Assembly (NCBI GenBank): GCA_038243585.1
Contig: JBBSQY010000011.1
Coordinates: 16,154 to 80,153, forward strand
Direction of reading: 5' to 3'
DNA length: 64,000 bases
DNA from: Candidatus Sumerlaeales bacterium
Lineage (GTDB): Bacteria; Sumerlaeota; Sumerlaeia; Sumerlaeales; Sumerlaeaceae
Of the stretch, positions 45,096 through 59,722 are shown piece by piece. Under the pieces are notes generated by a model. That model was not told the DNA's origin, searched no databases, and saw only the letters and a list, made by a program, of their open reading frames with translations. Made by a program: the position numbers and the translations under genes. The number at the start of each line of letters is the position of its first letter. The first letter of the stretch is position 1.

Positions 45096-46115
45096 GTGGC
45101 CGAATGTGGATTGTTCTTCTCGATGACTGATTTTAAACTGGTAGATTCCTATGGTCGCCAGATGACCTACCTGCGACTCTCCGTCACAGATCAGTGCCAG
45201 TTTCGTTGCGTTTACTGCATGCCTCCGGAAGGAATTGCCATGCTTCCGCGTGCCGATTATATGACTGCCGGTGAAATGGAATTGTTCGTTCGAGCGGTCG
45301 CGGCTATGGGGGTATGGCGGCTGCGGCTTACAGGCGGTGAACCGCTGATTCGGAAAGACATCGTCTCGCTTGTGGAACGGTTTTCGAAGATACCGGGCGT
45401 TGAAGACCTTTCGCTGACGACGAACGGCGAACGGTTGCCGGAACTGGTGGGTGATCTTAAACGGGCTGGCCTTCGCCGCCTGAACATCAGTCTGGACAGC
45501 ATGAATCCGGAGCGCTTCAAGGAGCTGACGTTGTCCGGTTCTTTTGACAAGGTTTGGAATGGAATCCATCAGAGCTTGGAAGCTGGACTTAAAGTAAAGA
45601 TTAACGTCGTCGTGATGAACGGCATCACTGCGGAGGAAATTGACGACTTCGCGCGGCTCGCTTTTGAGCAGCCTGTCGAGGTGCGGTTTATTGAGTTTAT
45701 GCCGCTGTGCGGCACCGGCTGGCGTCCGGATTTGACCTTGCCTATTGATGTGGTACGTTCCCAAATCGCCACGAACTACAACCTGGAGCCTCTCCCCCGC
45801 GGCAGCGAAGTGGCAGAAAGTTATCGCATGGTCGGCGGTAAAGGTGGCGTGGGATATATCGCGTCAATGACAGAGCCTTTTTGTTCAACCTGCTCCCGCA
45901 TCCGCATCAGCGCCACCGGCCGAATACAGCTTTGTTTGTTTTCTAATATTACATATAACCTGCTGCCAGCGCTTCGCAAGGAAGCCTCTATTGAGGAGAT
46001 ACAGGCGGAGGTGCGCAAGGCGGTAATGAGCAAGCCGGAAAGCCACCCGTGGGTAGACGGCAAGAGCCAGGTAAAACCGGAAGAGACTGCCATGATAAGG
46101 ACGATAGGTGGATAA
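45096..46115 (+). CDS. moaA: GTP 3',8-cyclase (radical SAM)
   Basis: YLRLSVTDQCQFRCVYCMP radical-SAM CxxxCxxC motif and a C-terminal second cluster (CSTCSRIRISATGRIQLC). The ORF-track start at 45096 is GTG, and the ATG at 45123 (MTDFKLVD) is more likely. Confidence 0.85.
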   Translation: MAECGLFFSMTDFKLVDSYGRQMTYLRLSVTDQCQFRCVYCMPPEGIAMLPRADYMTAGEMELFVRAVAAMGVWRLRLTGGEPLIRKDIVSLVERFSKIPGVEDLSLTTNGERLPELVGDLKRAGLRRLNISLDSMNPERFKELTLSGSFDKVWNGIHQSLEAGLKVKINVVVMNGITAEEIDDFARLAFEQPVEVRFIEFMPLCGTGWRPDLTLPIDVVRSQIATNYNLEPLPRGSEVAESYRMVGGKGGVGYIASMTEPFCSTCSRIRISATGRIQLCLFSNITYNLLPALRKEASIEEIQAEVRKAVMSKPESHPWVDGKSQVKPEETAMIRTIGG

Positions 46116-47028
46116 GGGCGGCATGCGCAATATTGCGCACAAAAACGACACGCTGCGAATCGCCACCGCGCAAGCGGTTGTGCATATGCATGAATCAACC
46201 ATTCAGCTTTTAAAAGATGGAAAGGCGCCGAAGGGTGATCCGCTTCCCCATGCGCGCATAGCAGCCATTATCGCTGCGAAGAAGACATCGGATCTGATCC
46301 CCTATTGTCATCCCCTGCTGATCGACTGTGTAACGGCTGACTTCGAGCTTGGCCATGATTCGGTCACTATAACTGTTACCGTGACAGCGGTGGCCAAGAC
46401 AGGCGTGGAAATGGAAGCGCTGACCGGGGCATCGCTGGCGGCGTTGACAATTTATGATATGTTGAAGCCAGTGGATAAAGACATGGAGATTCTGGGCTGC
46501 AAGCTGATCGACAAAAAAGGCGGCAAGTCAAGCTTTCCAGCGGGCGCGCCGGTGGGATTGAAAGTCGCGATTGTGGTGGTGTCTGATTCTACGGCGGCGG
46601 GAATTCGCATTGATAAGTCCGGCGCGCTGATTCGTGAGCGCCTCGCATCCTATGGCGTTGAGGATCCGATAATGCAGACGCTGCCCGATGAACAAGGACA
46701 GATTTCCCAGGCTCTCATTGATCTCGAGGAGAATGGCTGCGATCTTGTGTTAACCACTGGTGGTACAGGGTTGGGACCGCGCGATGTTACCGCCGCAGCC
46801 ACCAGGGATGTTATTGATAGAGAGGCGCCGGGCATTGCGGAGGCTATGCGATCCTACGGCCAGCGCCGCATGCCGTTTGCGATGTTGTCGCAGGGCGTGG
46901 CGGGGCTGCGCGGAACAACGCTGATTATCAACCTGCCCGGGTCAACCGCAGGGGTGGACGAATCCATGACGGCGATCTTTCCAGCGGTTTTTCACGCCTT
47001 TCCGATAATGGAAGGAGGAGGGCATTAA
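46108..47028 (+). CDS. moaC: Bifunctional cyclic pyranopterin monophosphate synthase MoaC fused to a MogA/MoaB-type molybdopterin adenylyltransferase domain
   Basis: The N-terminal half carries MoaC motifs (HMHESTIQLLKDG, DLIPYCHPLL, KTGVEMEALT). The C-terminal half is a MogA/MoaB fold (VVSDSTAAG...LVLTTGGTGLGPRDVT). It overlaps moaA by 8 nt. Confidence 0.8.
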   Translation: MDKGGMRNIAHKNDTLRIATAQAVVHMHESTIQLLKDGKAPKGDPLPHARIAAIIAAKKTSDLIPYCHPLLIDCVTADFELGHDSVTITVTVTAVAKTGVEMEALTGASLAALTIYDMLKPVDKDMEILGCKLIDKKGGKSSFPAGAPVGLKVAIVVVSDSTAAGIRIDKSGALIRERLASYGVEDPIMQTLPDEQGQISQALIDLEENGCDLVLTTGGTGLGPRDVTAAATRDVIDREAPGIAEAMRSYGQRRMPFAMLSQGVAGLRGTTLIINLPGSTAGVDESMTAIFPAVFHAFPIMEGGGH

Positions 47029-47769
47029 ATGCTCGCGTTAATACCCCTGTTTTTTCTTACGGCCCTGGCGTATTCCATGGCGGGATTTGGTGGCGGATCC
47101 ACCTACCTGGCGCTCCTTGTTCTTTTTGATCTGCCTCACGATTCAGTTAGAACAATCGCGTTAATGTGTAATGTAGCTGTGGTGACCTTCGGCACCTGGC
47201 ATTTTGCCAGGGGCGGACATCTGAGACTGCAAAAGGTTCTGCCGTTCGTGGTAACGTCAATTCCCATGGCTTATTTGGGCGGCACGATCCAGATTAGTAA
47301 GACTCTATTTACATTCTTGCTTGGGATATCGCTGGCGGTGGCGGCGGCGCGAATGTTATGGGTGGGTAAAGCCATTGAGCCGACTACAACAGTGAAACCG
47401 CAAACTATATGGTTGGTCGGAGCCCCTTTGGGTGCGATGCTGGGATTTCTTGCGGGCATTGTGGGAATCGGCGGAGGGATTTACCTGGCTCCCGTGCTCC
47501 TTTTTCTGGGTTGGGCTAACGCCAAAGAAATGGCGGCCGCAGCAAGTTTTTTCATCCTTGTCAATTCACTGGCGGGCCTGGCCGGACAGGCAACACGAGG
47601 CATTAATTTTGAGATGAACCTTCTGCTTCCGCTCCTTGTCGCCGTGTTGATGGGAGGACAGATCGGAAGCAGGCTGGGCACTTATAAACTGCCGAAGCTT
47701 GCGATTCAGAAACTTTCGGGGGCTTTAATTCTGCTGGTGTCGGGCCGCCTGCTCTGGGCGCTGATATGA
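47029..47769 (+). CDS. TauE/SafE (DUF81) family anion exporter embedded in the moa operon
   Basis: AGFGGGSTYL and IVGIGGGIYLAP motifs and eight TM helices. It starts 1 nt after the moaC stop and overlaps moeA by 4 nt. Confidence 0.7.
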   Translation: MLALIPLFFLTALAYSMAGFGGGSTYLALLVLFDLPHDSVRTIALMCNVAVVTFGTWHFARGGHLRLQKVLPFVVTSIPMAYLGGTIQISKTLFTFLLGISLAVAAARMLWVGKAIEPTTTVKPQTIWLVGAPLGAMLGFLAGIVGIGGGIYLAPVLLFLGWANAKEMAAAASFFILVNSLAGLAGQATRGINFEMNLLLPLLVAVLMGGQIGSRLGTYKLPKLAIQKLSGALILLVSGRLLWALI

Positions 47770-48980
47770 TTGATGTGAAAGAAGCTCAACAGATCATCCT
47801 TTCAACCGTTCGCGTTCAGCCGGCTGAGGAATGCGGGCTGTCGGAAGCCTGCGGGCGCGTTTTGGCTGAAGACCTGGCGTCGCCTATTTCCATGCCGTTG
47901 TTTGACAACTCGGCAATGGATGGCTATGCTTTGCGGAGCTGCGATGTCGCAGCGGCCACGGAGGACAATCCAGTTTATCTGACCCTCTCGGGAGAAGTGG
48001 CTGCGGGAGATGGCGTTGAATCCGGAATGATGCTCCAGCCGCATCACGCGGCGCAGATATTTACCGGGGCAATGGTGCCGGCGGGGGCGGATGCCGTGAT
48101 ACGGCAGGAAGATGTAACCGCAGAGGAAACAAAGATTACAATTAAGCGGGCAGTTAAGCTCAATGAAAACATCCGGTTTATGGGGGAAGAAATAAGGCAC
48201 GGAGATAAGGTGCTGACGGCGGGGACAAGGCTATCTCCCGCCGGAGTGGGCGTGCTGGCGAGTTTGGGCCAAACGAGCATTTCCGTATTTTCTCGACCAC
48301 GAGTGGGAATTTTAGTGACTGGTTCGGAAATCGTCGGCGCAACGGCTGACCTTCGGCCGGGTAAGATTTTCGACTCGAATTCATTCGCGCTTGCGGCAGC
48401 ACTTCGGGAATTGGACATACCAGTCACGTTTCAGAAAACTTGCATTGATGACCGGGAAACACTGCAGCGGGAGCTTATTGACGGATTGAACCAGACCGAT
48501 GTGCTTCTGGTAACTGGTGGGGTTTCCGTGGGGAAATATGATTTCGTGAAAGAAACGGCCGCGAAGGTCGGCATTGAAGAGTTATTCTGGCGCGTAAAAC
48601 AAAAGCCGGGCAAGCCGATATTTTTTGGAGCCACCACTGACAGGACCAAACTTTTTTTCGGCCTTCCGGGAAATCCGGCCTCTGTTTTAGTTAGCTTTTA
48701 CGAATACGTGCGCCCTGCGCTATTGAGTGCCATGGGGATGAGAGGTCCCTTTCTTACAGCCACAATAGCAACGCTTAAAAACGACTTCTCAAAACGCGTT
48801 GGCCTAACCCATTTTTTAAAGGGCAACCTTGCCTCGGACGGAACGGTCGAAATTCTTGAGCGTCAGGGATCGCACATGATGTCTTCGTTCGCCAGGGCAA
48901 ATTGCCTGGTGGTTTTGGGCGAGGCTGTTAACGATCTAGCCAAAGGAGACAAGGTGGAGGTTCACCTTTTAGCTGTATGA
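47766..48980 (+). CDS. moeA: Molybdopterin molybdotransferase
   Basis: MoeA architecture with SPISMPLFDNSAMDGYA and LVTGGVSVG motifs; 404 aa. Confidence 0.85.
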   Translation: MIDVKEAQQIILSTVRVQPAEECGLSEACGRVLAEDLASPISMPLFDNSAMDGYALRSCDVAAATEDNPVYLTLSGEVAAGDGVESGMMLQPHHAAQIFTGAMVPAGADAVIRQEDVTAEETKITIKRAVKLNENIRFMGEEIRHGDKVLTAGTRLSPAGVGVLASLGQTSISVFSRPRVGILVTGSEIVGATADLRPGKIFDSNSFALAAALRELDIPVTFQKTCIDDRETLQRELIDGLNQTDVLLVTGGVSVGKYDFVKETAAKVGIEELFWRVKQKPGKPIFFGATTDRTKLFFGLPGNPASVLVSFYEYVRPALLSAMGMRGPFLTATIATLKNDFSKRVGLTHFLKGNLASDGTVEILERQGSHMMSSFARANCLVVLGEAVNDLAKGDKVEVHLLAV

Positions 48981-49201
48981 AAATTCGAGTGTTGTATTTC
49001 GCGGCTATAAGAGAGCAGATGGGCCAGGCGGAAGCCACAATTGAAGTGGCTCCCGGCGAAACGCCGTCAAGCATGGCGAAGCAGCTTATGGGTTCGGATG
49101 CGACTTTGCTGTTCGCGGTCAACGATGAACTTGTCGCAAAGGACTATGCCTTGGCAGACGGCGATCAGTTAGCCTTTATTCCCCCCATGGCAGGCGGGTG
49201 A
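48977..49201 (+). CDS. moaD: Molybdopterin synthase sulfur-carrier subunit
   Basis: 74 aa ubiquitin-like protein ending in the diagnostic Gly-Gly (FIPPMAGG). ATGA overlaps on both sides. Confidence 0.7.
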   Translation: MKIRVLYFAAIREQMGQAEATIEVAPGETPSSMAKQLMGSDATLLFAVNDELVAKDYALADGDQLAFIPPMAGG

Positions 49202-49623
49202 GGATGCTGATAAAACTGACATCGGATGTGATTGACGTTTCAGAAGCACTTGCCTATGTTCGCGACCCATCGTGCGGAGCTGTTTCTATGTTTGAGGGCA
49301 ATATTCGAGACGAGAATCAGGGTGAGCTGGTGTTGAATCTCGAATATGAGGTGTACGAACAGCTTTTTACAAAAGAAGTTGAACGCATCGCTGCGGAAGC
49401 CAACGAAAAATGGCGCGTTCATGAGATGGCTATTGTGCAGCGGGTGGGTTTGCTGCAGGTGGGTGATACCGGCATCGTTATTTGTGTAAGCAGCGCACAC
49501 CGCCGCGACGCGCTTGAGGGACTTTCGTATATGATCGAAGAGTTCAAAAAGCGAGCGCCGGTCTGGAAAAAAGAGCGTACAGACGGCGGCGATAAATGGA
49601 TAAATTGGGGGCCGCAGATATAA
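49198..49623 (+). CDS. moaE: Molybdopterin synthase catalytic subunit
   Basis: 141 aa with MoaE motifs (GAVSMFEGNIRD, ICVSSAHRRDA, PVWKKE). Confidence 0.8.
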   Translation: MRMLIKLTSDVIDVSEALAYVRDPSCGAVSMFEGNIRDENQGELVLNLEYEVYEQLFTKEVERIAAEANEKWRVHEMAIVQRVGLLQVGDTGIVICVSSAHRRDALEGLSYMIEEFKKRAPVWKKERTDGGDKWINWGPQI

Positions 49624-49759
49624 ATTTCGAACTCGGTTAAGTCGGACAAAGCGGACCACATCGGTACCCATTTTAAAAAGACTTGCTACTGGGCGCCGGT
49701 TGCGCGACAAGTGTTAAAATTCCACTAAAACACTCCGTGGATTTAATGAAAGATTCCTC

Positions 49760-50137
49760 ATGGCCGAAGATATGTTCCACTTGGTAAGCAACCTGAACAC
49801 GGATATTTCTGTTCCCGCGAACGGTAAAACCAGCAAGGTGATTTACCAGGACGAACACCTGAAAGCGGTTTTGTTTGGCTTTGCGCCCGGCGCGGGTTTG
49901 GTTGAACACACTGCACCCATGCCTGGCATCCTGTATTTTGTCAGAGGCGAAGCCGAATTGTCACTGGGCAATCAGCAGAAGGAAGCCTCAGGCGGCCTGT
50001 GGGTTCACATGAACCCGAATCTGCCTCACAGCATCCTGGCTACGACTGAAACAGTAATGCTCCTTTTGATGCTTAAATGTGGAAAACCCTCTGCAAAAGA
50101 ATCAACCCCAGTTGAGTCTGATGAAACTTCAGATTAA
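49760..50137 (+). CDS. Cupin-domain protein
   Basis: A roughly 120 aa small-barrel cupin pattern (G...H.H......YFV.G) with possible metal ligands H-x-H. It lies immediately upstream of the molybdoenzyme operon. Confidence 0.5.
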   Translation: MAEDMFHLVSNLNTDISVPANGKTSKVIYQDEHLKAVLFGFAPGAGLVEHTAPMPGILYFVRGEAELSLGNQQKEASGGLWVHMNPNLPHSILATTETVMLLLMLKCGKPSAKESTPVESDETSD

Positions 50138-50558
50138 GAGTCACAGCATAAGATTCCGAATTACGATGGATGAAATGTTGGAGTTATCGACGCACAGGCA
50201 ACTGGCTTTTGAAACCCATGTCCCCCAAGGCGGAGGCGAAGTCGCCACGCTGCGATATGGTGTTCAATACCTGCCAGATATTGCCGCGTCTGATCTCAAC
50301 TTATTCCCGTTCGGCATGACCCTGGTTTTAAGCGAGACAGACTATACCGATCTTGCTAATCCGTCAAACGAAGGCATATACGTGCGAAGGGAATATGCTG
50401 GAGAAAATGGAAAGCTGATCCGCTTCGTGGCCTATATTGAAAAAGATATGAAAAGCAAAAAAGACAAAAAACAAAAGAAGCATAAGAATCGCAAAGACGC
50501 CTCAGACGCTGCTAACGTGGAAACCCTATTACGACAACCGGAGGTAAACGAACTTTGA
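50079..50558 (+). CDS. Hypothetical protein with Lys-rich C-terminal tail, translationally coupled to the NarI-like gene
   Basis: No recognisable domain. The tail is DMKSKKDKKQKKHKNRKD. Its 3' end overlaps the next gene by 4 nt. An alternative start is the ATG at 50121. Confidence 0.4.
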   Translation: MENPLQKNQPQLSLMKLQIKSHSIRFRITMDEMLELSTHRQLAFETHVPQGGGEVATLRYGVQYLPDIAASDLNLFPFGMTLVLSETDYTDLANPSNEGIYVRREYAGENGKLIRFVAYIEKDMKSKKDKKQKKHKNRKDASDAANVETLLRQPEVNEL

Positions 50559-51664
50559 CTCTTATAAGACGTTTGATACAGCAGCTTCACTGGCCTTCGG
50601 TCTTCTGGGGGCTGCTGGCTATGAGTGTCCTTGCGGTGCTGATATTGGTCGGCAGTCGAAATCTTGCGGATTTTGACGCCGCCCTGGTTGGCTATACGTT
50701 CGCCTGCCTGTTTTGTCTGTTCGGCACAGTATACCGTTACTCTGTCTGGATCAGCAAGCCGCCAACGCGGCGGTATTGGACGCGCGGATGGCAGCTATTA
50801 TTTACCCCGTCCACTTGGCGGATGGGGGCCAGAATCAAACTGCTGCTAAGTGCCATCTGGGGGCGTCTGATATTTCAGTCCTTTGTTCTTAAACGGAGCA
50901 AACGGCGCTGGCTGGGTCACATGTTGCTGGCCTGGGGCAGCATGCTTGGGTTTGCAGTAACATTCCCCCTGGTGTTCGGTTGGATCCACTTTCAGCAAAA
51001 TGCCATTGAACCGGTACAGACCTACAAAGTAATGTTTTTCGGTTTTCAGGTCTCCACCATTCCCCTGACGGGCTTGATAAGCTGGTCGATTTTTCATGCC
51101 CTGGTTATTGCATCGGTCATGGTAATGGCAGGCGTTATGATCGTCATGGTGCGCCGTATGTTCGACATGGGGGCGGTTGCCGTGGAGCGGTTCTCAAGGG
51201 ATTATCTTCCGCTGCTTTTATTGTTTTCGGTCGCGTCGAGCGGGCTGCTGCTCTGGATCAGCTATGAGTGGTTCAACGGGCAGTTCTATAATGCTCTAGC
51301 CACTTTTCACGCTATTACCGTGATTGCGTTCCTGGTTTATCTGCCGTTCGGAAAGCTCTTTCACATCTTCCAGCGTCCCGCCTCCCTAGGGGTTGTCTTC
51401 TACCGGGTGGTGGGCGAGATGGGCAAGCCGGCGGTTTGTCCCGTTACCGGCCAACCGTTTGCGTCCGAACTCCAGACAAACGATCTTAAGCACGTATTGC
51501 CAGAACTGGGGTTTGACTACTCAGCGCAGGTGGCGCCACCATCTACAGTCGAGACTAACCCAATCACCACGCCTGTTCCGGCGTGGAATGAGATTTCTCC
51601 GCAGGGGCGCCGGATCGTTATCGGGCGTGCCCACAACATAGCAAGACGTGGCAAATTTGATTAA
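50555..51664 (+). CDS. NarI-like (nitrate-reductase-gamma superfamily) membrane cytochrome b with C-terminal soluble extension
   Basis: Five predicted TM helices carry conserved His residues (GHMLLAWG, FHALVIAS). The motif YLPFGKLFHIF matches the PFxKLxH signature of NarI, HdrE and DsrM, as I recall it. About 90 aa of cytoplasmic tail are extra relative to NarI. Confidence 0.6.
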   Translation: MTLIRRLIQQLHWPSVFWGLLAMSVLAVLILVGSRNLADFDAALVGYTFACLFCLFGTVYRYSVWISKPPTRRYWTRGWQLLFTPSTWRMGARIKLLLSAIWGRLIFQSFVLKRSKRRWLGHMLLAWGSMLGFAVTFPLVFGWIHFQQNAIEPVQTYKVMFFGFQVSTIPLTGLISWSIFHALVIASVMVMAGVMIVMVRRMFDMGAVAVERFSRDYLPLLLLFSVASSGLLLWISYEWFNGQFYNALATFHAITVIAFLVYLPFGKLFHIFQRPASLGVVFYRVVGEMGKPAVCPVTGQPFASELQTNDLKHVLPELGFDYSAQVAPPSTVETNPITTPVPAWNEISPQGRRIVIGRAHNIARRGKFD

Positions 51665-51675
51665 AGGTTATTAAA

Positions 51676-53940
51676 ATGGCAGACGTTCCAGCGGCAGATC
51701 CTCGACACTTAATAGAGGAATATGGACCTCACATTTCCGATTCTCCGGTTACAGGCTGGAATGACAAACCCATTCCAGATAAACTCGTGGAAACTCATTG
51801 CTGTTTTTGCGGCATGCAGTGCGGTATCAAGCTCGCAGTTTCCGATAATAAGGTTGTGGGTTTTGAACCTTGGGAGGAGTTTCCTTTTAACGAAGGCCGC
51901 CTCTGTCCGAAGGGCGTCAAACGCTACATGCAGACCCACCATCCGGACCGCCTGCTGGACCCGTTGATCCGCACAGATTCCGGTTTCCGCAAGGCAACAT
52001 GGGACGAGGCGCTGGATCTGATCGTGTCCAAGATTCAGGACATTCAGAAGCGCCTCGGCCATGACGCCGTCGGCATGATGAGTGGTGTGTCCTTATCCAA
52101 TGAAAAGTCTTACCTGGTTGGCAAATTCGCTCGTCTGGGACTGCAGACGAAGCAACTGGATTACAATGGACGTTTCTGCATGGTATCGGCGGGAGCGGGA
52201 AACAAAAAAGCCTTTGGCATTGATCGCGCGGCCAACACCTGGCAGGACATTCCGGAGGCAGAGGTGCTGTTTGTTGCCGGCTCCAATGTCAGCGAATGCT
52301 TTCCGACCCTAATGCATTATATCTGGAAAGCCCGTGACCGCGGCGCCCAGGTTATCGTAGTCGATCCCCGCCTGACCCCTATATCGCGCACCGCAGAATA
52401 TCACCTGGCTTTGCGTCCGGGCACAGACAGCGCTCTTTACCAGGCGCTCCTTCATGAACTAATTCGCAACAACTGGCTGGATCACGAGTTCATCGCGGAA
52501 TGCTGCACCGGTTGGGAAGAATTGCGTACTTCTGTTGAAACCTGTACGCCTGAATGGGCCGGTGAAATTTGCGGTCTCGATCCCGATCTCATTCGTCGCG
52601 TTGCCGAAGTCTGGGGCAAGGCGAAAACCAGTTTCCTGATGCACGCCCGTGGCATCGAACAACACACAAAGGGCACCGACAACGTGCTCGGCTGCATCAA
52701 CCTGGTACTCGCCACCGGACGTATCGGGCGCAAGGGCTGCGGCTATGGTACAATCACCGGCCAGGGTAATGGCCAGGGCGGGCGCGAGCACGGGCATAAA
52801 TGCGATCAGCTTCCGGGTAACCGCGACATCGAAAACCCGGAGCATCGCGCCCACATCTGCAAGGTATGGGACATCACAGACGAGCAGTTGCCCCACAAAG
52901 GCGTCACCGCTGTGGAAATGTTTGAACAGGCCCACGACGGTGAGCTGGCAGCGATGATCAACATCTGTTGTAATCCCATCGTCAGCCATCCCGACACCAA
53001 TTATCTTCGTGAGGCCCTTGAACGGCTGGAGTTCTTTGTCGTCATCGACTTCTTCATGAGCGAGACGGCGCGCTATGCGGATGTGATTTTGCCGGGCTCT
53101 CTTCATGAGGAAGAAGAAGGCACATCCACCAGCGCGGAGGCGCGAGTAATTCGCATACGCGCGGCGGTTACGCCACCCGCCAATGCACGGTCCGACAGTT
53201 GGATCTTGATAGAAATAGCGCGCCGGCTGGGTCAGGGTAAATACTTCCCTTACGGAAACACTCAGGAAATTTTTGAAGAACTCCGCCTGGCCAGCTCCGG
53301 TGGCACCGCCGACTACGCGGGGATCACCTGGGAACGCATCGAACGGGAAATGGGCGTATTCTGGCCCTGCCCTACAGTGGATCACCCCGGCACGCCCCGC
53401 CTTTTCGAGGATCGGAAAAGCTACCACGCCGACGGCAAGTTTCACCTCTACCCGACGCCGTACCGTCTGAGCGCGGAAGTGCCGGATGCGGAGTACCCCA
53501 TCTACTATACCAGCGGCCGCAGCGTGTTTCATTATCTTAGCGGCACCCAAACTCGGCGCATCAAGTTTCTAGTCGATCAATGCCCGGGCCCCACCTGTGA
53601 GATGCACCCGGAACTTGCCACGGCCCTGGGACTCGTGGACAGGCAACTGGTCACGGTAGAATCGCGGCGCGGCAAGCTGACAGTTCCGCTGGAGGTCGTC
53701 GACACTATTCGTCATGACACCGTATTCGTCCCGTATCACTGGGCCGAACGCCTGGCGGCGAATCAGATCACCATTCGCGCTCTGGACCCCATCAGCAAAA
53801 TGCCCGAGTTTAAGGTAGCAGCCTGCCGGGTTCGGCCGGCCACGCCAGAGGAAGCACAGCAGCTGCGTGTGGACTATGGCGACCTTAGACTACTGGCCAC
53901 TTCAAAAGACGCTTCGCCTAGAGGAGAAAACCGACCATGA
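51676..53940 (+). CDS. Molybdopterin (bis-MGD) oxidoreductase catalytic subunit, NasA/NarB-like assimilatory-nitrate-reductase family, no Tat signal
   Basis: N-terminal 4Fe-4S motif C-x2-C-x3-C...C-P-K-G (HCCFCGMQCGIKL...RLCPKG). The 754 aa length matches NarB/NasC-type enzymes. No twin-arginine leader is present. Confidence 0.75.
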   Translation: MADVPAADPRHLIEEYGPHISDSPVTGWNDKPIPDKLVETHCCFCGMQCGIKLAVSDNKVVGFEPWEEFPFNEGRLCPKGVKRYMQTHHPDRLLDPLIRTDSGFRKATWDEALDLIVSKIQDIQKRLGHDAVGMMSGVSLSNEKSYLVGKFARLGLQTKQLDYNGRFCMVSAGAGNKKAFGIDRAANTWQDIPEAEVLFVAGSNVSECFPTLMHYIWKARDRGAQVIVVDPRLTPISRTAEYHLALRPGTDSALYQALLHELIRNNWLDHEFIAECCTGWEELRTSVETCTPEWAGEICGLDPDLIRRVAEVWGKAKTSFLMHARGIEQHTKGTDNVLGCINLVLATGRIGRKGCGYGTITGQGNGQGGREHGHKCDQLPGNRDIENPEHRAHICKVWDITDEQLPHKGVTAVEMFEQAHDGELAAMINICCNPIVSHPDTNYLREALERLEFFVVIDFFMSETARYADVILPGSLHEEEEGTSTSAEARVIRIRAAVTPPANARSDSWILIEIARRLGQGKYFPYGNTQEIFEELRLASSGGTADYAGITWERIEREMGVFWPCPTVDHPGTPRLFEDRKSYHADGKFHLYPTPYRLSAEVPDAEYPIYYTSGRSVFHYLSGTQTRRIKFLVDQCPGPTCEMHPELATALGLVDRQLVTVESRRGKLTVPLEVVDTIRHDTVFVPYHWAERLAANQITIRALDPISKMPEFKVAACRVRPATPEEAQQLRVDYGDLRLLATSKDASPRGENRP

Positions 53941-54674
53941 CTGTCGTAATACAGGATATGTTCATTGATTTTCAACGGTGTATCGGATGCATGGCCTGCG
54001 TGGCCGCATGCTCCGAATGCCACACCCACCGCGGCAACTCTATGATCCACGTGGATGAGGTTGATCCAGGTCACAGCACTCAGACCGTACCCATGATCTG
54101 CATGCACTGTAAGGTGCCCACCTGCGCCATGAGTTGCCCTGCGGACGCTATTAAAATGGACGAGCAGGGTATTGTGCATTCTTCGCTGAAGCCCCGGTGC
54201 ATCGCTTGCCGCAACTGTGAACTCACCTGCCCGTTTGGCGTGCCCATCATTCAAGAGGACATCCAGCAGATGCAGAAGTGTGACATGTGTTATGATCGCA
54301 CCAGCGCGGGCAAAAAACCTATGTGCGCCACGGTTTGTCCAACCGGTGCCATATCCTATGGTAACGTGGAAGATATGAAACGGAACCGCCCTCACTCCAA
54401 GCCGATAAATCAGTGGCGGTTTGGAAAGCAACTGGTTGAGACGCGAGTTTACGTGATGGTACCGCATGACATTGACGAGATGCTCGTTGATTGGCCGGAG
54501 ATGTTAAAGGGTGCACAGGGCCCGGTGGACCTTGCTGTTCAACTGCGTGACCGATTTATCCAAATGGGAAAACTTCCGACGGAAGTTCCTCTCGGGCCTG
54601 TAGCGGCGACACCAAACCAGATTCCCGAAAATCTCCAACCAACAACGGTACCAGGGGGGCCTGAATTCTTATGA
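53937..54674 (+). CDS. Four-cluster [4Fe-4S] ferredoxin subunit (DmsB/NarH/HybA-like)
   Basis: Four Cys clusters: CIGCMACVAAC, CMHCKVPTCAMSCP, CIACRNCELTCP and CDMCYDR...CATVCP. ATGA overlaps with both neighbours. Confidence 0.75.
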   Translation: MTVVIQDMFIDFQRCIGCMACVAACSECHTHRGNSMIHVDEVDPGHSTQTVPMICMHCKVPTCAMSCPADAIKMDEQGIVHSSLKPRCIACRNCELTCPFGVPIIQEDIQQMQKCDMCYDRTSAGKKPMCATVCPTGAISYGNVEDMKRNRPHSKPINQWRFGKQLVETRVYVMVPHDIDEMLVDWPEMLKGAQGPVDLAVQLRDRFIQMGKLPTEVPLGPVAATPNQIPENLQPTTVPGGPEFL

Positions 54675-55219
54675 GCCAGTCGAACTATCCGCAAAATCCT
54701 CTCCCGCCAAAATGGCGTGAAGATTTTCCCTATGAAACCGAAGGTGACGACTTTATCACCCGCCGCGACTTCACCCGTTTTCTTTGCATCATCAGCGCGG
54801 GTTTCGCTACCGGCAATGCGTGGATTCTGGGGAAGTCCCTCGTGGATAAAAAGCATAAGACGCCTGTTGTCGCTGTCTGCAAAACAGGCGATCTGCAACC
54901 GGGCAAATGGATGGTTTTTAAGTATCCCGATGATATAACACCCGCCATGCTTATCCGGCGCCTCAACGGAGACTTCATCGCCTATATGCAGAAGTGCACC
55001 CATCTCGCCTGCCCTGTTGCTTACGAGCAGGATCGTGACGGCGGCGGTGAAGGATTATCCTGTCATTGTCATAATGGACATTTCGATATTAACACCGGTG
55101 AAGGAATCGCGGGGCCACCGAAAGGGCTTCGGCCACTGCCGCGTATTAAGCTGGAATTTAAGGGTGACCAGATACTCGCTGTCGGATTCGATTATCATAG
55201 AGGGATTGGCCGCTCATGA
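54671..55219 (+). CDS. Rieske [2Fe-2S] protein of the high-potential (bc1/arsenite-oxidase AioB) type with Tat-like N-terminal membrane anchor
   Basis: Box I CTHLAC (C-x-H-x2-C) and box II CHCH (C-x-C-H) include the disulfide cysteines. The N-terminus TRRDFTRFLCIISAGFATGNAWILG resembles an uncleaved twin-arginine signal and anchor. Confidence 0.7.
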   Translation: MSQSNYPQNPLPPKWREDFPYETEGDDFITRRDFTRFLCIISAGFATGNAWILGKSLVDKKHKTPVVAVCKTGDLQPGKWMVFKYPDDITPAMLIRRLNGDFIAYMQKCTHLACPVAYEQDRDGGGEGLSCHCHNGHFDINTGEGIAGPPKGLRPLPRIKLEFKGDQILAVGFDYHRGIGRS

Positions 55220-55647
55220 AAAAAACGGCTCCCGAAACCTGGGTCGACACATCTCCTATTCCACCAACAAAAATTGTACCGACCCCTGATTTTCCGAAAC
55301 GTGCCGGAGTCGCAGCGACCGGCACCGCCATACTTATTTTCGTAGCCATGTTTTGTGTGTTTCAGTACTGGCTGCTTACAGCGACTTTAGAAGCATACCA
55401 CGCGGGTGACGACGACCTGCCGCTGGGCGCGTTCCTGGCATCAGTGGGTTGCTTTGTGATGGCTGTGGCACTCACCCTGATGGGAGAAATCGCGCTGATG
55501 AAACAGCAGGATTATCTTCGAAAAAATACGGCTGTGCCTGTGAAAATCCACGCGTATGAGCCCCCGGTTAACCGCGCTGGACCAAGCGGCGCTCCCTCAC
55601 CGAGTCAAACGATGACTACGGAAGCAGGCGGCGGCGACTCCGGCTGA
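55216..55647 (+). CDS. Small two-TM membrane protein of unknown function in the molybdoenzyme operon
   Basis: Two hydrophobic helices (AILIFVAMFCVFQYWLL, ASVGCFVMAVALTLMGEIAL). ATGA overlap with the Rieske gene. No known motif. Confidence 0.4.
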   Translation: MKKTAPETWVDTSPIPPTKIVPTPDFPKRAGVAATGTAILIFVAMFCVFQYWLLTATLEAYHAGDDDLPLGAFLASVGCFVMAVALTLMGEIALMKQQDYLRKNTAVPVKIHAYEPPVNRAGPSGAPSPSQTMTTEAGGGDSG

Positions 55648-55707
55648 TTAGCCACACCTGTAGTCTATTTCGCCACTGCCGCAATTATAGAAAGCCGTTC
55701 CCCCTCC

Positions 55708-57318
55708 ATGAAGGATCAAACTAAAGCCACCGTTGTTCTCACCGCGAACACTATAGCATTCGCCATCTGCTTTGCCTGTTGGATGATGAATGCTGTGCTC
55801 GTAACGTTCCTATCTACCAACGGCGTATTCGACTGGACTTCTGGTCAGGTAGGAATGCTGCTGGCCACTCCGGTGCTTACGGGCTCATTATTGCGGTTGC
55901 CCGTTGGAATGATGACCGACCGATTCGGAGGACGCGTCGTTTACACTGTACTGATGCTCCTGGCGGCGGCGGCGCTGTTTCTTAATTCCTATGCGAATTC
56001 CTACACACAGTTTCTGATTGCGGCGCTGGGTTTCGGCATTTCCGGAGCGTCCTTTGCCGTGGGCGTAGCTTATACCTCCGTATGGTTTCCGAAAGAACGT
56101 CAAGGCACCGCACTGGGCATATTTGGAATGGGAAACGCAGGGACGGCGTTGACACTGATGCTTGCTCCCACACTTCTGAAGATGCTGACCGACGGTGGAG
56201 CAAACCTGGATGGCTGGCGGAATCTGCCTCGGGTCTACGCGGTAATTCTTGTAATTACGGCGGTCATCTTTTACTTTGTGACATTTGCCAAAAAGCCTGC
56301 TGCAGTTAACCGCACAATGAGGCAACGCCTCGCTCCGCTGGGTCAGGTGCGCGTTTGGAGATTCGGGTTGTACTATGCCCTGTTGTTTGGCGGCTTTGTT
56401 GCCTTATCCAACTGGCTGGTCCCCTATTACGTGAAAGCTTACGGTCTTACCCTGGCTGCCGCCGGGCTGTACGCCACCATTTTTTCGTTACCGTCAGGCT
56501 TGTTTAGAGCGGTAGGCGGATGGCTCAGCGACCGGCTGGGCGCAAGGATGGTTATGCACGGTGTTCTCGCCACTGTCGCTCTCATCACTTTTGCATTATT
56601 CTTTCCAAAGATGGACATCATAACACCGGGCGAGGGAATCCTCGCAAAATTTCCAGGAATTGTAGTTTCTCGAACCGATACCGAAATTTCCGTAAAGCGA
56701 GATAAGTCTGATAAGGTTGATACATATCAACTAAGCGGTAAAGCGCCCAAAGGCGTGACAGAGTCTTCCGGTGCTGAAAGAGACCAGAAATTTACGCTTA
56801 TCCCAAAGACGGACAGTTGGCAGGAATGGGTTGGCAAAAGTAGCATGGGGCCAGACGGGACGATTAAGTACGAGCGCTTTAAGACCGGGGATAAAATAGC
56901 CCAGCGGGAACTGCTTGCCAAGGGTTCGACCCATATTTATTTTCAGGCAAACGTATACATCTTCACGCTGCTGGTCTTGTTGCTCGGCATGGCCATGGGA
57001 ATTGGAATGGCAGCTGTTTACAAACACATCCCCACGTATTTCCCCGATGATGTTGGCATAGTCGGCGGGCTGGTCGGAGTCATTGGCGGTCTCGGGGGAT
57101 TTGTGCTTCCGATAATCTTTGGCTGGTTGCTCTCGACCACAGGTATCTGGACGACATGCTGGGTGTTTCTCTTTCTTATTACTGTCGGGTGTCTGTTGTG
57201 GATGCGGCTGGTGCTCCGTTCAGCGGTTAATGAGTCGGCACCTCATCTGAAAGAGCATTTTGATAAGCAAGAAATCACAGGATCGTATAATATGGCATCG
57301 CGCGCTGCAGAAAAATAA
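55708..57318 (+). CDS. narK: MFS nitrate/nitrite porter (NarK/NNP family) with an unusually large insertion in the central loop
   Basis: Two copies of the NNP signature G-x3-D-R-x-G-x-R (MMTDRFGGRVVY, WLSDRLGARMV) and 12 TM helices. About 110 extra residues of hydrophilic sequence lie between the halves (residues about 300-410). Confidence 0.7.
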   Translation: MKDQTKATVVLTANTIAFAICFACWMMNAVLVTFLSTNGVFDWTSGQVGMLLATPVLTGSLLRLPVGMMTDRFGGRVVYTVLMLLAAAALFLNSYANSYTQFLIAALGFGISGASFAVGVAYTSVWFPKERQGTALGIFGMGNAGTALTLMLAPTLLKMLTDGGANLDGWRNLPRVYAVILVITAVIFYFVTFAKKPAAVNRTMRQRLAPLGQVRVWRFGLYYALLFGGFVALSNWLVPYYVKAYGLTLAAAGLYATIFSLPSGLFRAVGGWLSDRLGARMVMHGVLATVALITFALFFPKMDIITPGEGILAKFPGIVVSRTDTEISVKRDKSDKVDTYQLSGKAPKGVTESSGAERDQKFTLIPKTDSWQEWVGKSSMGPDGTIKYERFKTGDKIAQRELLAKGSTHIYFQANVYIFTLLVLLLGMAMGIGMAAVYKHIPTYFPDDVGIVGGLVGVIGGLGGFVLPIIFGWLLSTTGIWTTCWVFLFLITVGCLLWMRLVLRSAVNESAPHLKEHFDKQEITGSYNMASRAAEK

Positions 57319-57355
57319 TGCGATCCAGGTCGCAGAGAGCAGTCCGCGCCCTCCC

Positions 57356-58642: not shown

Positions 58643-59722
58643 TTAGAAAGAGCGCATTCCGGAAATCATCCTTTTCATCAGCCCCAGGAACGTCGCTATC
58701 CAGGCCGCCAGGGCTATGTAGATAAACACCCGTGGGATAACCAGCAAAAAGTCCAGCCGCATTACTGTTGCCAGACTGTAGGTGCAGACGGTGTACATGG
58801 CTAGCGGAAACACAGCCCCCCAATACTGCGGATCATATTGAAGAGGGTAACGTTTAAAGAGGTGACGCCAGATGCCCAGTATCACCAGCATCGGAATCCA
58901 CCATGTGCCGGTGGCCCAATAAAAGATGGTAGCTCCTTTGAGAAACGGGAGCATCGACATCAGGAATGGCGCATCCACCGAATTTTGAATGAGCCGAGTG
59001 CCGGCTAGTGTGGATATGGCCATTGCTCCCATATTTATCCAATACGGCGGCGAAAGGTCGCCGGGTGAAAACTTGAAAAATGTGTACCTGTAAAAAATGA
59101 GCGAAATCATCCAGGTATAAAGCATACCGCCCCAAAGCCACATAGAGAGCGCCACGAAGTTGAGTTCAACCCTGTACGGTTGGGGCAGGTGTGCCGCCAT
59201 CAGCGCCGTTAAAACGACTACGGATTGCGTGGCCACAACAGAAAGCAACCACGCCCCGGAGATGCCGCTGGATAAATCCGGTTTAATTTCTTTGACGGTC
59301 CATGCGGTAAATATTGCATAGGTGAGGCTTACCCACAACAGCGCCGCAATGGCCAGCATGGCAGCGGCAATGTTAAATTGCTGATATATTATTATAAACT
59401 GTGATCCCACGACACAGGTACTAGCCACAAAGGTAAAGAAGCCAGGACCGACCTGGTGACTTACCATATCTGAAAAAAAGTGACGAGGATAATAAACCAC
59501 CCGGGTCATATTAACAAACATCAATACTAGGTAAACAGCCAGGTTCAGGAAGAATAGCCCCTCGGCTAGCCATGGCACCGAAAGCAAGTGGGCGGCGATG
59601 GACAGAGTCCCGGTCGCCATTGCCATCGCAAAATAAGAGGGTGGGAAATCGCGGACAACGTTACGCAGGCCCTTTTCAGGTATCGCAGCAGCATTTTGCA
59701 GTTTAGAAAGATCGTTCATCAA
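58643..59722 (-). CDS. TehA/Mae1/SLAC1-like tellurite-resistance/dicarboxylate transporter (TDT) family anion channel
   Basis: Ten TM helices. The N-terminal region DFPPSYFAMAMATGTLSIAAHLL is typical of the TehA family as I recall it. Confidence 0.6.
   Translation of the reverse strand: MMNDLSKLQNAAAIPEKGLRNVVRDFPPSYFAMAMATGTLSIAAHLLSVPWLAEGLFFLNLAVYLVLMFVNMTRVVYYPRHFFSDMVSHQVGPGFFTFVASTCVVGSQFIIIYQQFNIAAAMLAIAALLWVSLTYAIFTAWTVKEIKPDLSSGISGAWLLSVVATQSVVVLTALMAAHLPQPYRVELNFVALSMWLWGGMLYTWMISLIFYRYTFFKFSPGDLSPPYWINMGAMAISTLAGTRLIQNSVDAPFLMSMLPFLKGATIFYWATGTWWIPMLVILGIWRHLFKRYPLQYDPQYWGAVFPLAMYTVCTYSLATVMRLDFLLVIPRVFIYIALAAWIATFLGLMKRMISGMRSF

Follow-up and report, generated by a model that had tools for sequence, protein, structure and literature searches.

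Does the nitrate reductase-like locus of Candidatus Sumerlaeales bacterium encode one enzyme in two compartments? We analyzed a window of 64,000 nucleotides (contig JBBSQY010000011.1 of assembly GCA_038243585.1), in which a Rieske protein that appears to be exported is encoded beside a molybdopterin subunit and a four-cluster ferredoxin without signals. The preliminary description had proposed two explanations: either the catalytic subunit is exported together with the Rieske protein by hitchhiking, as AioA is with AioB, or electrons cross the membrane within one complex. We found that the observation itself is correct, and that its interpretation is only partly supported: the two options were framed properly, further evidence favors the second without excluding the first, and the implied high-potential Rieske center is not supported.

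Rieske, Mo and Fe-S subunits

The genes and motifs needed for this question are as follows.

51676..53940 (+), 754-aa Mo-bisPGD catalytic subunit, NasC/Nap-type nitrate reductase, no signal peptide
53937..54674 (+), 245-aa four-[4Fe-4S] ferredoxin subunit (DmsB/FdnH type), no signal and no TM helix, with a variable C-terminal linker
54671..55219 (+), 182-aa Rieske [2Fe-2S] subunit with a conserved N-tail, a Tat motif, one TM helix and the Rieske domain
54710..54757 (+), conserved N-tail KWREDFPYETEGDDFI, preceding the RR motif
54758..54781 (+), twin-arginine motif TRRDFTRF
54779..54841 (+), 20-residue hydrophobic helix FLCIISAGFATGNAWILGKSL, the signal anchor
54995..55012 (+), Rieske box I, CTHLAC (cluster Cys and His plus the first disulfide Cys)
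55061..55084 (+), Rieske box II, CHCHNGHF (cluster Cys and His, the second disulfide Cys, and Gly136/Phe138 at the bc1 Ser/Tyr positions)

Translation of 54758-54841 gave TRRDFTRFLCIISAGFATGNAWILGKSL, and translation of 54995-55084 gave CTHLACPVAYEQDRDGGGEGLSCHCHNGHF. The Rieske subunit matched Pfam Rieske (E 3.3e-10), and its NCBIfam matches were AioB (37.9 bits), QcrA (35.8) and the proteobacterial bc1 Rieske (33.7), while NirD was absent from the matches at E<=0.01. In PDB sequence searches it matched AioB 1g8k_B and the Thermus Rieske protein (1.5e-8), with 30% identity to AioB. The AF2 model (pLDDT 83.6) contained a helix at residues 31-57. A structural match to cytoplasmic NasG/NirD-type proteins, or a confident prediction that the RR motif is non-functional and the Rieske domain faces the cytoplasm, had been named beforehand as a refuting result, and neither was obtained: by Foldseek, the best fold match of this model was periplasmic AioB (1g8j, 6.5e-8), although cytoplasmic Rieske ferredoxins (TodB, CarAc) scored almost as well.

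To determine whether these features arose by chance, we aligned 81 orthologous Rieske sequences from more than 10 phyla, including Sumerlaeota, Myxococcota, Armatimonadota, Acidobacteriota, Planctomycetota, Chloroflexota and Bacteroidota. The results showed that they did not: R31 is kept in 79/81 and R32 in 81/81; position 30 is S/T/A, position 33 is E/D, position 34 is F/L, and position 36 is K or R in 80/81. The family consensus, (S/T/A)-R-R-(E/D)-(F/L)-x-(K/R), is a canonical Tat motif. C109, H111, C114, C131, C133 and H134 are each conserved in 81/81. In the N-tail, W15, D18, F19 and P20 were invariant among 28 sequences, and were kept in 77/81, 74/81, 81/81 and 76/81, respectively, in the full set. 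Conservation of a Tat n-region is unusual, and we infer from it a cytoplasmic docking or chaperone-binding peptide. The preliminary description had also assigned the extra cysteines to a periplasmic high-potential center. However, the Ser and Tyr of CPCHGSxY, which raise the potential in bc1 Rieske proteins, are replaced here by Gly136 and Phe138 in 81/81 sequences. The center is of the disulfide type but probably not high-potential.

The Mo subunit contains the Pfam domains Molybdop_Fe4S4, Molybdopterin and Molydop_binding. Its best NCBIfam match was NasC at 826 bits, below the equivalog cut-off of 1100, compared with Fdh-alpha at 588, NapA at 309 and AioA at 128. The active-site stretch RFCMVSAG carries Cys-Met, the Nap/Nas type, rather than the Sec/Cys-His of Fdh. 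The ORF already starts at the first start codon after a stop, and its N-terminus, MADVPAADPRHL..., contains no RR. In more than 60 orthologues the true N-termini (MAKPP..FGPH..PDKLVKTHCCFCGQQC) also lack a Tat motif. The ferredoxin subunit matched Pfam Fer4_11 (6.6e-21), NCBIfam DmsB (93 bits), HybA and FdhB, and PDB FdnH 1kqf_B (3e-21). It has 16 Cys in four motifs, the first CxxCxxCxxxC beginning at residue 15, and no signal was found in any orthologue.

Conserved module and membrane subunit

We next examined the neighboring genes.

45096..49623 (+), molybdenum cofactor genes moaA, moaC/mog-type fusion, TauE-like, moeA, moaD and moaE, upstream of the reductase genes
50079..50558 (+), DUF7009 protein of unknown role
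50555..51664 (+), 369-aa membrane subunit (memB), a probable NarI/HdrE-type dihaem cytochrome b with six predicted TM helices, N-in and C-in, and an about 100-aa predicted cytoplasmic C-tail
55216..55647 (+), 143-aa small 2-TM subunit (DUF6755), basic termini predicted inside, conserved QxWLLTAT..A...GD at the predicted outer face
55708..57318 (+), 536-aa NarK-family MFS transporter with an insertion of about 100 aa in the central loop
57260..57973 (+), MobA-like molybdopterin guanylyltransferase (makes the bis-MGD form), true start probably downstream of the listed TTG
58643..59722 (-), 359-aa SLAC1/TehA-family anion channel

The module memB, Mo subunit, FeS subunit, Rieske and small 2-TM protein is conserved in about 70/80 loci over more than 10 phyla. 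The Mo, FeS, Rieske and DUF6755 genes overlap by 4 bp (ATGA), indicating translational coupling. A 2-TM ORF follows the Rieske gene in 73 of 80 loci, usually with an ATGA overlap, and the Pfam DUF6755 profile matched the protein of this window at 1.7e-9. The FeS-Rieske adjacency and ATGA coupling are kept even where the gene order changes, as in Armatimonadota. We found no description of this complex, and NCBI names the cytochrome b "MFS transporter".

The family of memB is supported only by weak matches. Pfam Nitrate_red_gam gave E 0.0079, below threshold; the best HMM hits were NCBIfam TcuB (5.9e-6) and QmoC (1.5e-5); hhalign to E. coli NarI gave E 0.015 with a probability of 3%, aligning H252 with H187 and H270 with H205; and the only meaningful Foldseek hit was EtfD 9ojn (prob 0.98, E 0.11) from an AF2 model with pLDDT 87.4. 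No PDB cytochrome b was hit. In the family, His122, His252 and His270 are invariant, His181 is conserved in >=90%, and the motif LPFGKLFHIFQRP is conserved. We counted K and R residues as family means, and found 28 on the predicted N-side segments (1.5+10.1+3.5+12.7) against 3 on the P-side segments (1.2+1.3+0.5). About 150 conserved residues of memB are thus predicted to lie in the cytoplasm, including a Cys4 ribbon-like tail in 56/66 homologues, which is a docking surface with no obvious use if the partners were outside.

The NarK gene, from which the preliminary description had inferred cytoplasmic nitrate, matched Pfam MFS_1 (2e-41) and the NarK family TIGR00886 at 193 bits, below its cut-off of 311. 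MFS genes, including the NarK type, flank 52/80 loci, and SLAC1/TehA channels (Pfam SLAC1 5.6e-49 in this window) are present in 27/80, mostly directly downstream of Rieske-DUF6755 on the same strand; either one is linked in 60/80. Genes for cytoplasmic NO/nitrite stress are also linked: RIC in 13 loci, NnrS in 6, NorR-like in 4 and Rrf2 in 4. No c-type cytochrome or nitrite reductase gene is linked, no periplasmic acceptor is encoded nearby, no narJ was seen in the module, and no NapD/TorD-type chaperone was seen among the conserved neighbors. The DUF7009 gene (Pfam 6.3e-9; no PDB relative) is conserved only in the Sumerlaeota-type islands (loci L001, L002, L007 and L081 of our set). Locus L081 carries the same molybdenum cofactor island, as shown by its Pfam labels, and a 208-aa orthologue of the MobA-like protein, which in this window matched Pfam NTP_transf_3 at 9.3e-30.

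Proposed topology and rival readings

Our best reading, held as about as likely as not, is a five-subunit, membrane-bound quinol:nitrate oxidoreductase with NarGHI-like topology, assembled from different parts. In this view, quinol would be oxidized at the outer (P) face of memB, and electrons would pass from the distal haem (His181/His252) to the proximal haem (His122/His270), then to the ferredoxin docked on the cytoplasmic face, and finally to the [4Fe-4S] cluster and Mo-bisPGD site of the NasC-type subunit, which would reduce nitrate in the cytoplasm. Nitrate and nitrite would move through the linked NarK-type MFS and/or SLAC1-type channel. The Rieske subunit would be inserted by Tat with its N-tail in the cytoplasm and its disulfide-bearing domain on the P face, beside the quinol/distal-haem site together with the DUF6755 subunit, serving either as the first-electron and proton acceptor of quinol oxidation or as a port to periplasmic carriers like NarC of Thermus. 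Gene content, motifs, conservation and synteny are shown by our analysis, whereas the NarI-type assignment rests only on the weak matches above, and the topology, the location and docking of the subunits, the electron path and the role of the Rieske center are inferred.

Several lines of evidence support this reading. The five genes form a module conserved over more than 10 phyla, with ATGA overlaps from the Mo to the DUF6755 gene. The known NarI/HdrE/QmoC/TcuB/EtfD-type proteins all hand electrons to or from a cytoplasmic partner, and the positive-inside bias of memB is extreme. The Mo and FeS subunits lack any signal in all orthologues, and the Mo subunit is closest to cytoplasmic NasC and cytoplasmic Fdh. 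In known systems narK accompanies cytoplasm-facing Nar/Nas, not Nap, and the linked stress genes are in line with this. The Tat motif, the invariant disulfide cysteines and the nearest relatives, AioB and bc-type Rieske proteins, are evidence for the Rieske domain on the P side, while the conserved N-tail fits a cytoplasmic contact. A periplasmic redox subunit bound to NarI of an inward-facing nitrate reductase has a precedent in Thermus NarCGHI (PMC7694296). However, a NarI-type haem wire needs no Rieske center, so the model leaves this subunit without a necessary role although it is never missing from the module, and the lack of a nearby periplasmic acceptor also speaks against the model.

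Tat hitchhiking is not excluded, but we consider it rather unlikely. In this reading, the Rieske, ferredoxin and Mo subunits assemble in the cytoplasm and are exported together on the Rieske signal-anchor, and nitrate is reduced on the outer face. memB and the Rieske would form a bc-like quinol-oxidizing site, with one electron going through Rieske, FeS and Mo, and the two b haems recycling the other electron or serving as an anchor, as proposed for the haloarchaeal Rieske/cytb-pNar system. It would explain the signal-less subunits and the indispensability of the Rieske more economically, giving every redox subunit a necessary role in a linear wire. The only targeting signal in the module is on the Rieske, where it is canonical and invariant, and the Rieske is most similar to AioB, the known hitchhiking carrier; the kept FeS-Rieske adjacency also agrees with it. 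There is precedent for Rieske/cyt b feeding an outward-facing nitrate reductase (PMC3509893), and multi-subunit hitchhiking is known, for example, in E. coli PaoABC, DmsAB and FdnGH. On the other hand, a periplasmic enzyme would not need the transporters linked in 60/80 loci, the cytochrome b is of the probable NarI/HdrE type and not bc-type, with a predicted proximal haem site and about 150 conserved residues on the cytoplasmic side and no known Qi site, the Mo subunit is nearest to NasC/Fdh rather than NapA, and no NapD/TorD-type chaperone was seen.

A location of all soluble parts in the cytoplasm is unlikely. Here the RR motif would not be used by Tat, the helix would insert N-out/C-in or be merely membrane-associated, and the Rieske domain would relay electrons between the proximal haem and the ferredoxin, so that no compartment puzzle remains and all Fe-S centers form one linear chain. 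Net charge favors it, as the N-flank of the helix is on average net negative (3.1 K/R against 3.9 D/E) and the C-flank net positive (2.9 K/R against 1.2 D/E); an acidic N-tail of about 30 aa could be translocated without Sec, and cytoplasmic Rieske ferredoxins match the model almost as well as AioB. However, the canonical Tat motif lies immediately before the helix in 79-81/81 sequences, basic residues after the h-region are a Sec-avoidance feature of Tat signals, and three conserved K/R directly N-terminal of the helix argue against N-out. In addition, both disulfide cysteines are invariant, yet they are absent from known cytoplasmic Rieske proteins, and NirD-type models do not match at E<=0.01.

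It is very unlikely that the enzyme is instead a Rieske-linked Mo enzyme for another oxyanion (iodate, chlorate, arsenite, formate) in the manner of AioAB/IdrAB: although Aio/Idr are the only characterized Mo enzymes with Rieske subunits, the NasC score is below its cut-off, and the best solved relatives are formate dehydrogenases (no Nas structure exists for comparison), NasC is by far the best family, the Cys-Met motif is Nap/Nas-like, NarK-family transporters and NO-stress genes are linked, and AioA-type features are absent, because the Cys ligand and a four-Cys FS0 motif are present.

Comparison with characterized systems

Like E. coli-type NarGHI and Thermus NarCGHI, the module combines a probable membrane dihaem cytochrome b, with the NarI-like His pattern and the C-terminal PFxKLxHIxxxP motif, with a four-cluster Fe-S subunit and a Mo-bisPGD subunit without signals, and a linked narK; Thermus also has an additional redox subunit bound to NarI on the periplasmic face. 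However, the catalytic subunit is Cys-ligated NasC/Nap-type (754 aa) and not Asp-ligated NarG (about 1250 aa), and the Fe-S subunit is of DmsB/FdnH size with four complete Cys4 motifs and not NarH (TIGR01660 41.7 bits against a cut-off of 524). The cytochrome b has 6 predicted TM helices plus large predicted cytoplasmic additions, the extra P-side subunit is a Rieske protein and not a cytochrome c, and there is an additional 2-TM subunit.

In AioAB and IdrAB the Rieske carries the only Tat signal, and the Mo subunit has none and hitchhikes. Here a four-cluster ferredoxin lies between the Rieske and the Mo subunit, and a probable dihaem cytochrome b and nitrate transporters are part of the module. 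AioA has no protein ligand and a [3Fe-4S] cluster.

The assimilatory enzymes NasC/NasA/NarB share with this locus the best family match of the catalytic subunit, the absence of a signal peptide, a linked nitrate transporter and the presence in many aerobic soil heterotrophs. Known Nas enzymes are soluble and take electrons from NAD(P)H via NasB/NasG, or from ferredoxin or flavodoxin, whereas here the partners are membrane-bound (cytochrome b, TM-anchored Rieske and 2-TM protein) plus a four-cluster ferredoxin.

The bc1 and b6f complexes and the haloarchaeal Rieske/cytb-pNar cluster also pair a Tat-anchored, disulfide-containing Rieske with a transmembrane dihaem cytochrome b, and in haloarchaea such a pair is encoded with, and proposed to feed, a nitrate reductase (PMC3509893). 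The cytochrome b here is not the bc-type eight-helix (or split) protein, there is no cytochrome c1/f, and the Ser/Tyr residues are Gly/Phe. Haloarchaeal NarG carries its own Tat signal, faces outward and is NarG-type.

The HdrE/DsrM/QmoC/TcuB/EtfD membrane modules, among which memB found its best HMM and fold hits, are NarI-like dihaem b modules coupled to cytoplasmic Fe-S partners. These partners are CCG-domain or HdrD-like proteins and not a DmsB-type ferredoxin plus a Mo enzyme, and none of these modules is known to have a Rieske partner.

Gene composition of the reductase island

To determine which genes accompany the Rieske protein, we annotated the reading frames of the 64-kb window with Pfam and NCBIfam profiles, and found that positions 45096-57973 of the + strand form one island composed of the following genes, in order:
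molybdenum-cofactor genes moaA, moaC/B, a TauE-like gene, moeA, moaD and moaE (+)
49760-50137 (+), a cupin
50079-50558 (+), a DUF7009 protein
50555-51664 (+), a 369-aa membrane protein, here called memB
51676-53940 (+), a 754-aa Mo-bisPGD subunit
53937-54674 (+), a 245-aa four-cluster ferredoxin (FeS subunit)
54671-55219 (+), a 182-aa Rieske protein
55216-55647 (+), a 143-aa two-helix DUF6755 protein
55708-57318 (+), a NarK-family MFS transporter
mobA (+)

The Mo, FeS, Rieske and DUF6755 genes overlap by ATGA. A SLAC1/TehA-family anion channel gene lies just downstream on the other strand (58643-59722, -), and a 1175-aa ORF of unknown function directly follows the island (59800-63327, +). The rest of the window encodes unrelated proteins, including glycoside hydrolases, amidases and glutamine synthetase, and no nitrite reductase was found in it. 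An almost identical island occurs on a 308-kb contig of a relative. The cupin and DUF7009 genes precede the cytochrome b-like gene only in the Sumerlaeota-type islands; a PDB sequence search with DUF7009 found no solved relative, and the protein could be an assembly factor. The NarK-like protein is 536 aa long and scores below the NarK family cut-off (193 against 311 bits). It has an insertion of about 100 residues between predicted helices at about 281-299 and 418-436, whereas typical NarK proteins lack such a soluble domain.

Sequence features of the Rieske, molybdenum and ferredoxin subunits

The preliminary description had noted a twin-arginine-like anchor and extra cysteines on the Rieske protein, next to a molybdopterin subunit and a ferredoxin without any signal. 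Translation of the genes showed that this observation holds in every element. TRRDFTRF is followed by the 20-residue hydrophobic helix FLCIISAGFATGNAWILGKSL, and both CTHLAC and CHCH are present. The Mo subunit ORF cannot be extended upstream and begins MADVPAADPRHL with no RR, and the first cluster motif of the ferredoxin starts at residue 15.

To determine whether these features are conserved, we scanned one genome per species with a sequence pattern, found at least 569 genomes encoding a relative, and analysed 80 of those loci. Alignment of 81 Rieske sequences showed that R32 is invariant and R31 is kept in 79/81, with the surrounding consensus (S/T/A)-R-R-(E/D)-(F/L)-x-(K/R), which is the textbook Tat motif. 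The cluster ligands C109-x-H111 and C131-x-x-H134 and the second cysteine of each box, C114 and C133, are conserved in 81/81 sequences, and the Pfam Rieske profile matched at 3.3e-10. The Mo subunit N-termini of 60+ orthologues share MAKPP..FGPH..PDKLVKTHCCFCGQQC and never carry RR; the apparent long extensions in high-GC genomes come from taking the first possible start codon. These results indicate that the observed features are not due to chance.

The preliminary description had also assigned the Rieske centre to the high-potential class. In bc1 Rieske proteins the potential is raised by the Ser and Tyr hydrogen-bond donors of CPCHGSxY, whereas in this family invariant Gly136 and Phe138 occupy these positions in 81/81 sequences. 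The high-potential label is therefore not supported, and a potential nearer menaquinol-type or AioB-type centres is inferred. In profile and PDB searches the Rieske protein matched AioB and the Thermus and actinobacterial bc Rieske proteins best, and NirD-type models did not appear at E<=0.01. The AlphaFold model (pLDDT 83.6, one long helix at residues 31-57) is closest to AioB (E 6.5e-8, 30% identity), but cytoplasmic Rieske ferredoxins follow within a factor of ten, so the fold alone does not settle the compartment.

The Mo subunit is closest to NasC, with 826.1 bits for NF047855, below the equivalog cut-off of 1100, against 588 bits for Fdh-alpha and 309 for NapA. Its presumed Mo ligand sits in RFCMVSAG, and this Cys-Met pair is the Nap/Nas signature rather than the Sec/Cys-His of formate dehydrogenases. 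The best solved relatives are cytoplasmic formate dehydrogenases, followed by NapA, in a PDB without a Nas structure for comparison. We rejected a formate dehydrogenase identity despite these PDB hits, because no Nas structure exists for comparison, the NasC profile scores much higher and the active site is Cys-Met. The ferredoxin has 16 Cys in four motifs and matches FdnH, PsrB and DmsB. In the Sumerlaeota clade it ends in a conserved ...E(A/F)(E)(F/Y)L-COOH peptide (window 54575-54674; homologous proteins P0126-P0138), which follows a variable, apparently disordered linker of 40-80 residues and looks like a tethered docking motif.

To compare the module with known enzymes, we examined the defining features of each. 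For NarGHI, the NarG profile TIGR01580 gave 63 bits against a cut-off of 1084, and the NarH profile TIGR01660 gave 41.7 bits against 524. For the assimilatory NasC/NasA/NarB enzymes, which are soluble, take electrons from NAD(P)H, ferredoxin or flavodoxin and are linked to an assimilatory nitrite reductase, the conserved partners here are instead membrane proteins and a four-cluster ferredoxin, and no nitrite reductase was found in the window or among neighbour clusters present in >=4 loci. For the periplasmic enzyme Nap, which has a Tat signal on NapA and NapB/NapC c-type cytochromes or NapGH, no RR occurs in any Mo-subunit N-terminus, NapA models score 309 bits against a cut-off of 904, and no CxxCH proteins are linked. 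For AioAB/IdrAB, in which the Rieske small subunit is paired directly with the large subunit, the Rieske protein resembles AioB at 37.9 bits against a cut-off of 95.65, the large subunit scores 128 bits against 359 for AioA, and a four-cluster ferredoxin gene lies between them.

The membrane subunit and the conserved gene neighbourhood

The gamma subunit, which the preliminary description had left unnamed, proved informative. Alignment of memB homologues showed invariant His122, His252 and His270 and near-invariant His181, and the C-terminal motif LPFGKLFHIFQRP mirrors FPFSRLIHIWSVP of E. coli NarI. Each family match is weak. Profile alignment to an approximate NarI sequence, not taken from a database record, paired H252/H270 with NarI H187/H205, the distal and proximal haem ligands, at E 0.015 and a probability of 3%. 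The NarI profile Pfam PF02665 gave 16.3 bits, below its cut-off of 22.9, the other profile hits were QmoC and TcuB, and the only sensible fold hit was EtfD. A PDB sequence search with memB found nothing, including no cytochrome b match. The membrane partner is thus not supported as the bc-type cytochrome b of Rieske/cytochrome b complexes and matches NarI, QmoC, TcuB and EtfD instead. The assignment to a NarI-type dihaem cytochrome b rests on several weak but concordant signals. In every characterised member of this cytochrome b family described so far, electrons are exchanged with a partner on the cytoplasmic side.

The AlphaFold model of memB (pLDDT 87.4) has six long helices, a helical insert at 69-114, a three-stranded sheet at 144-170 and a C-tail of about 100 residues. 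Family-mean K+R counts are 10.1 (residues 68-115), 3.5 (200-216) and 12.7 (266-369) on one side and 1.2, 1.3 and 0.5 on the other. The predicted topology is therefore N-in/C-in, with His122/His270 near the cytoplasmic face and His181/His252 near the outer face. In 56/66 homologues (loci L009-L080 of the related set) the predicted cytoplasmic C-tail carries two CxxC pairs (C.RCG...HYQ.ICP.CRR), a ribbon-like Cys4 motif of zinc-ribbon or rubredoxin-like type, whereas the Sumerlaeota/Myxococcota clade of the window has lost three of the four cysteines (tail at window about 51434-51661). We also searched for natural FeS-Rieske or memB-Rieske fusions that would fix the topology. We found one 393-aa protein, P0397, in which a degenerate memB-like membrane domain is fused upstream of an RR-helix-Rieske unit. 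It is compatible with the memB C-terminus and the Rieske N-terminus lying on the same (cytoplasmic) side, but it is not a clear family member, and a second candidate, P0242, looks like a chimeric gene call.

Comparison of the 80 loci showed that the order memB-Mo-FeS-Rieske is kept in about 70 of them, whereas Armatimonadota have FeS-Rieske-(small ORF)-NarK-memB-Mo. A two-helix ORF follows the Rieske gene in 73 of 80 loci, usually overlapping it, and has basic termini and a conserved QxWLLTAT..A..GGD turn. MFS (NarK-like) genes occur in 52 loci and SLAC1/TehA channels in 27, and one or the other occurs in 60 of 80. In these 27 loci (L042:6113-7204 and 26 others) the channel gene is usually directly after Rieske-DUF6755 on the same strand, and it may encode a nitrate/nitrite channel used instead of, or together with, NarK. 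NO/nitrosative-stress genes also recur next to the module in other phyla, namely a rubredoxin-ScdA-hemerythrin RIC protein (13 loci), NnrS (6), a NorR-like sigma-54 activator (4) and an Rrf2 regulator (4) (L025:15190-16164 and 12 other loci; L063:10563-11882; L015:1210-2787; L007:3000-3485). No c-type cytochrome, nitrite reductase or NapD/TorD-type Tat-proofreading chaperone recurs among the neighbours of these loci.

Possible arrangements of the complex and their meaning

The Rieske domain is most likely outside, as suggested by the canonical Tat motif, the invariant disulfide-type cysteine pair that cytoplasmic Rieske proteins are not known to carry, and the AioB/bc affinity. The positive residues after the helix could be read as N-out/C-in, but they are equally the Sec-avoidance feature of Tat signals. 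Four independent observations point to a cytoplasmic location of the Mo and FeS subunits: the polarity and family of the putative NarI-type cytochrome b; the large conserved, predicted cytoplasmic surface of memB together with the conserved, predicted cytoplasmic N-tail of the Rieske protein (W15, D18, F19, P20); the NasC affinity and the lack of signals; and the pervasive linkage to nitrate/nitrite-type transporters and to cytoplasmic NO-stress genes. We therefore favour, at about even confidence, a NarGHI-like redox loop in which electrons cross the membrane. In this view the Rieske protein would be an outer-face accessory centre at the quinol site, and could be either the first-electron and proton acceptor or a port to periplasmic carriers, like NarC of Thermus NarCGHI (PMC7694296). 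Such a haem wire does not need a Rieske centre, yet the Rieske protein is never missing. Gene content, motifs, conservation and synteny are shown by the sequences, whereas Tat-dependent export, formation of the disulfide, subunit location, the electron path and the role of the Rieske centre are inferred.

The preliminary description had proposed either co-export of the catalytic subunit or electron transfer across the membrane within one complex, and this interpretation is partly supported: an outer-face Rieske protein is favoured and the second option is preferred, while the high-potential centre is not supported. Tat hitchhiking remains possible but less likely. The sequence pattern of one Tat signal and two signal-less subunits is compatible with it, it would give the Rieske protein a necessary role, and it has precedents in AioBA and in the haloarchaeal Rieske/cytb-pNar proposal (PMC3509893), but it leaves the transporters and the predicted cytoplasmic mass of memB unexplained. 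A more far-reaching possibility, which we hold only tentatively, is a new class of Rieske/cytochrome b complex, in which a Tat-anchored Rieske centre and a NarI-type (not bc-type) dihaem cytochrome b would form a Qo-like quinol-oxidising site on the outer face. Electrons would split there, the haem branch crossing the membrane to a cytoplasmic NasC-type nitrate reductase in place of a Qi site, and the Rieske branch serving periplasmic acceptors. This would be a fourth architectural type of bacterial nitrate reductase beside Nar, Nap and Nas, present in thousands of soil and sediment genomes that are currently scored as 'assimilatory nasA/narB'. An all-cytoplasmic arrangement is improbable and would require ignoring the Tat motif and the predicted disulfide. 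A non-nitrate substrate is unlikely.

Full-text literature searches, which did not cover subscription-only papers and so cannot exclude a prior description, returned no account of this module, and the Sumerlaeota genome papers examined mention only narGHI, nrfAH or napA. No solved structure found in our PDB searches contains it, and Pfam lists the small subunit as DUF6755. Modular Mo-bisPGD respiratory-type complexes are already known; what appears unprecedented is the combination of a NasC-type subunit, a DmsB-type ferredoxin, a putative NarI-type cytochrome b and a Rieske protein with a predicted Tat anchor. It would be the first Rieske protein paired with a NarI-type cytochrome b. It would also be either the first Rieske centre sitting across the membrane from the catalytic module it is encoded with or, if hitchhiking applies, a three-subunit Tat hitchhiker for a Nas-type enzyme, and either outcome would be new. 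If the enzyme is quinol-linked, membrane-bound and inward-facing, nitrate reduction in Sumerlaeota, Myxococcota, Acidobacteriota, Armatimonadota, Planctomycetota, Chloroflexota and others would be coupled to the quinone pool and probably also to proton-motive force, which changes its energetic and ecological meaning. Cultured carriers include Sorangium, Herpetosiphon, Chitinophaga and Rubrivirga.

The catalytic subunit is routinely annotated nasA/narB or napA, and genome-based nitrogen-cycle inventories therefore count this complex as soluble assimilatory, or periplasmic, nitrate reduction. The memB family holds at least 4642 proteins, which are named 'MFS transporter' or 'hypothetical protein' in NCBI/UniRef records (for example the homologues P0170, P0214 and P0220) and only sometimes 'nitrate reductase gamma subunit' in JGI, which looks like a systematic misannotation.
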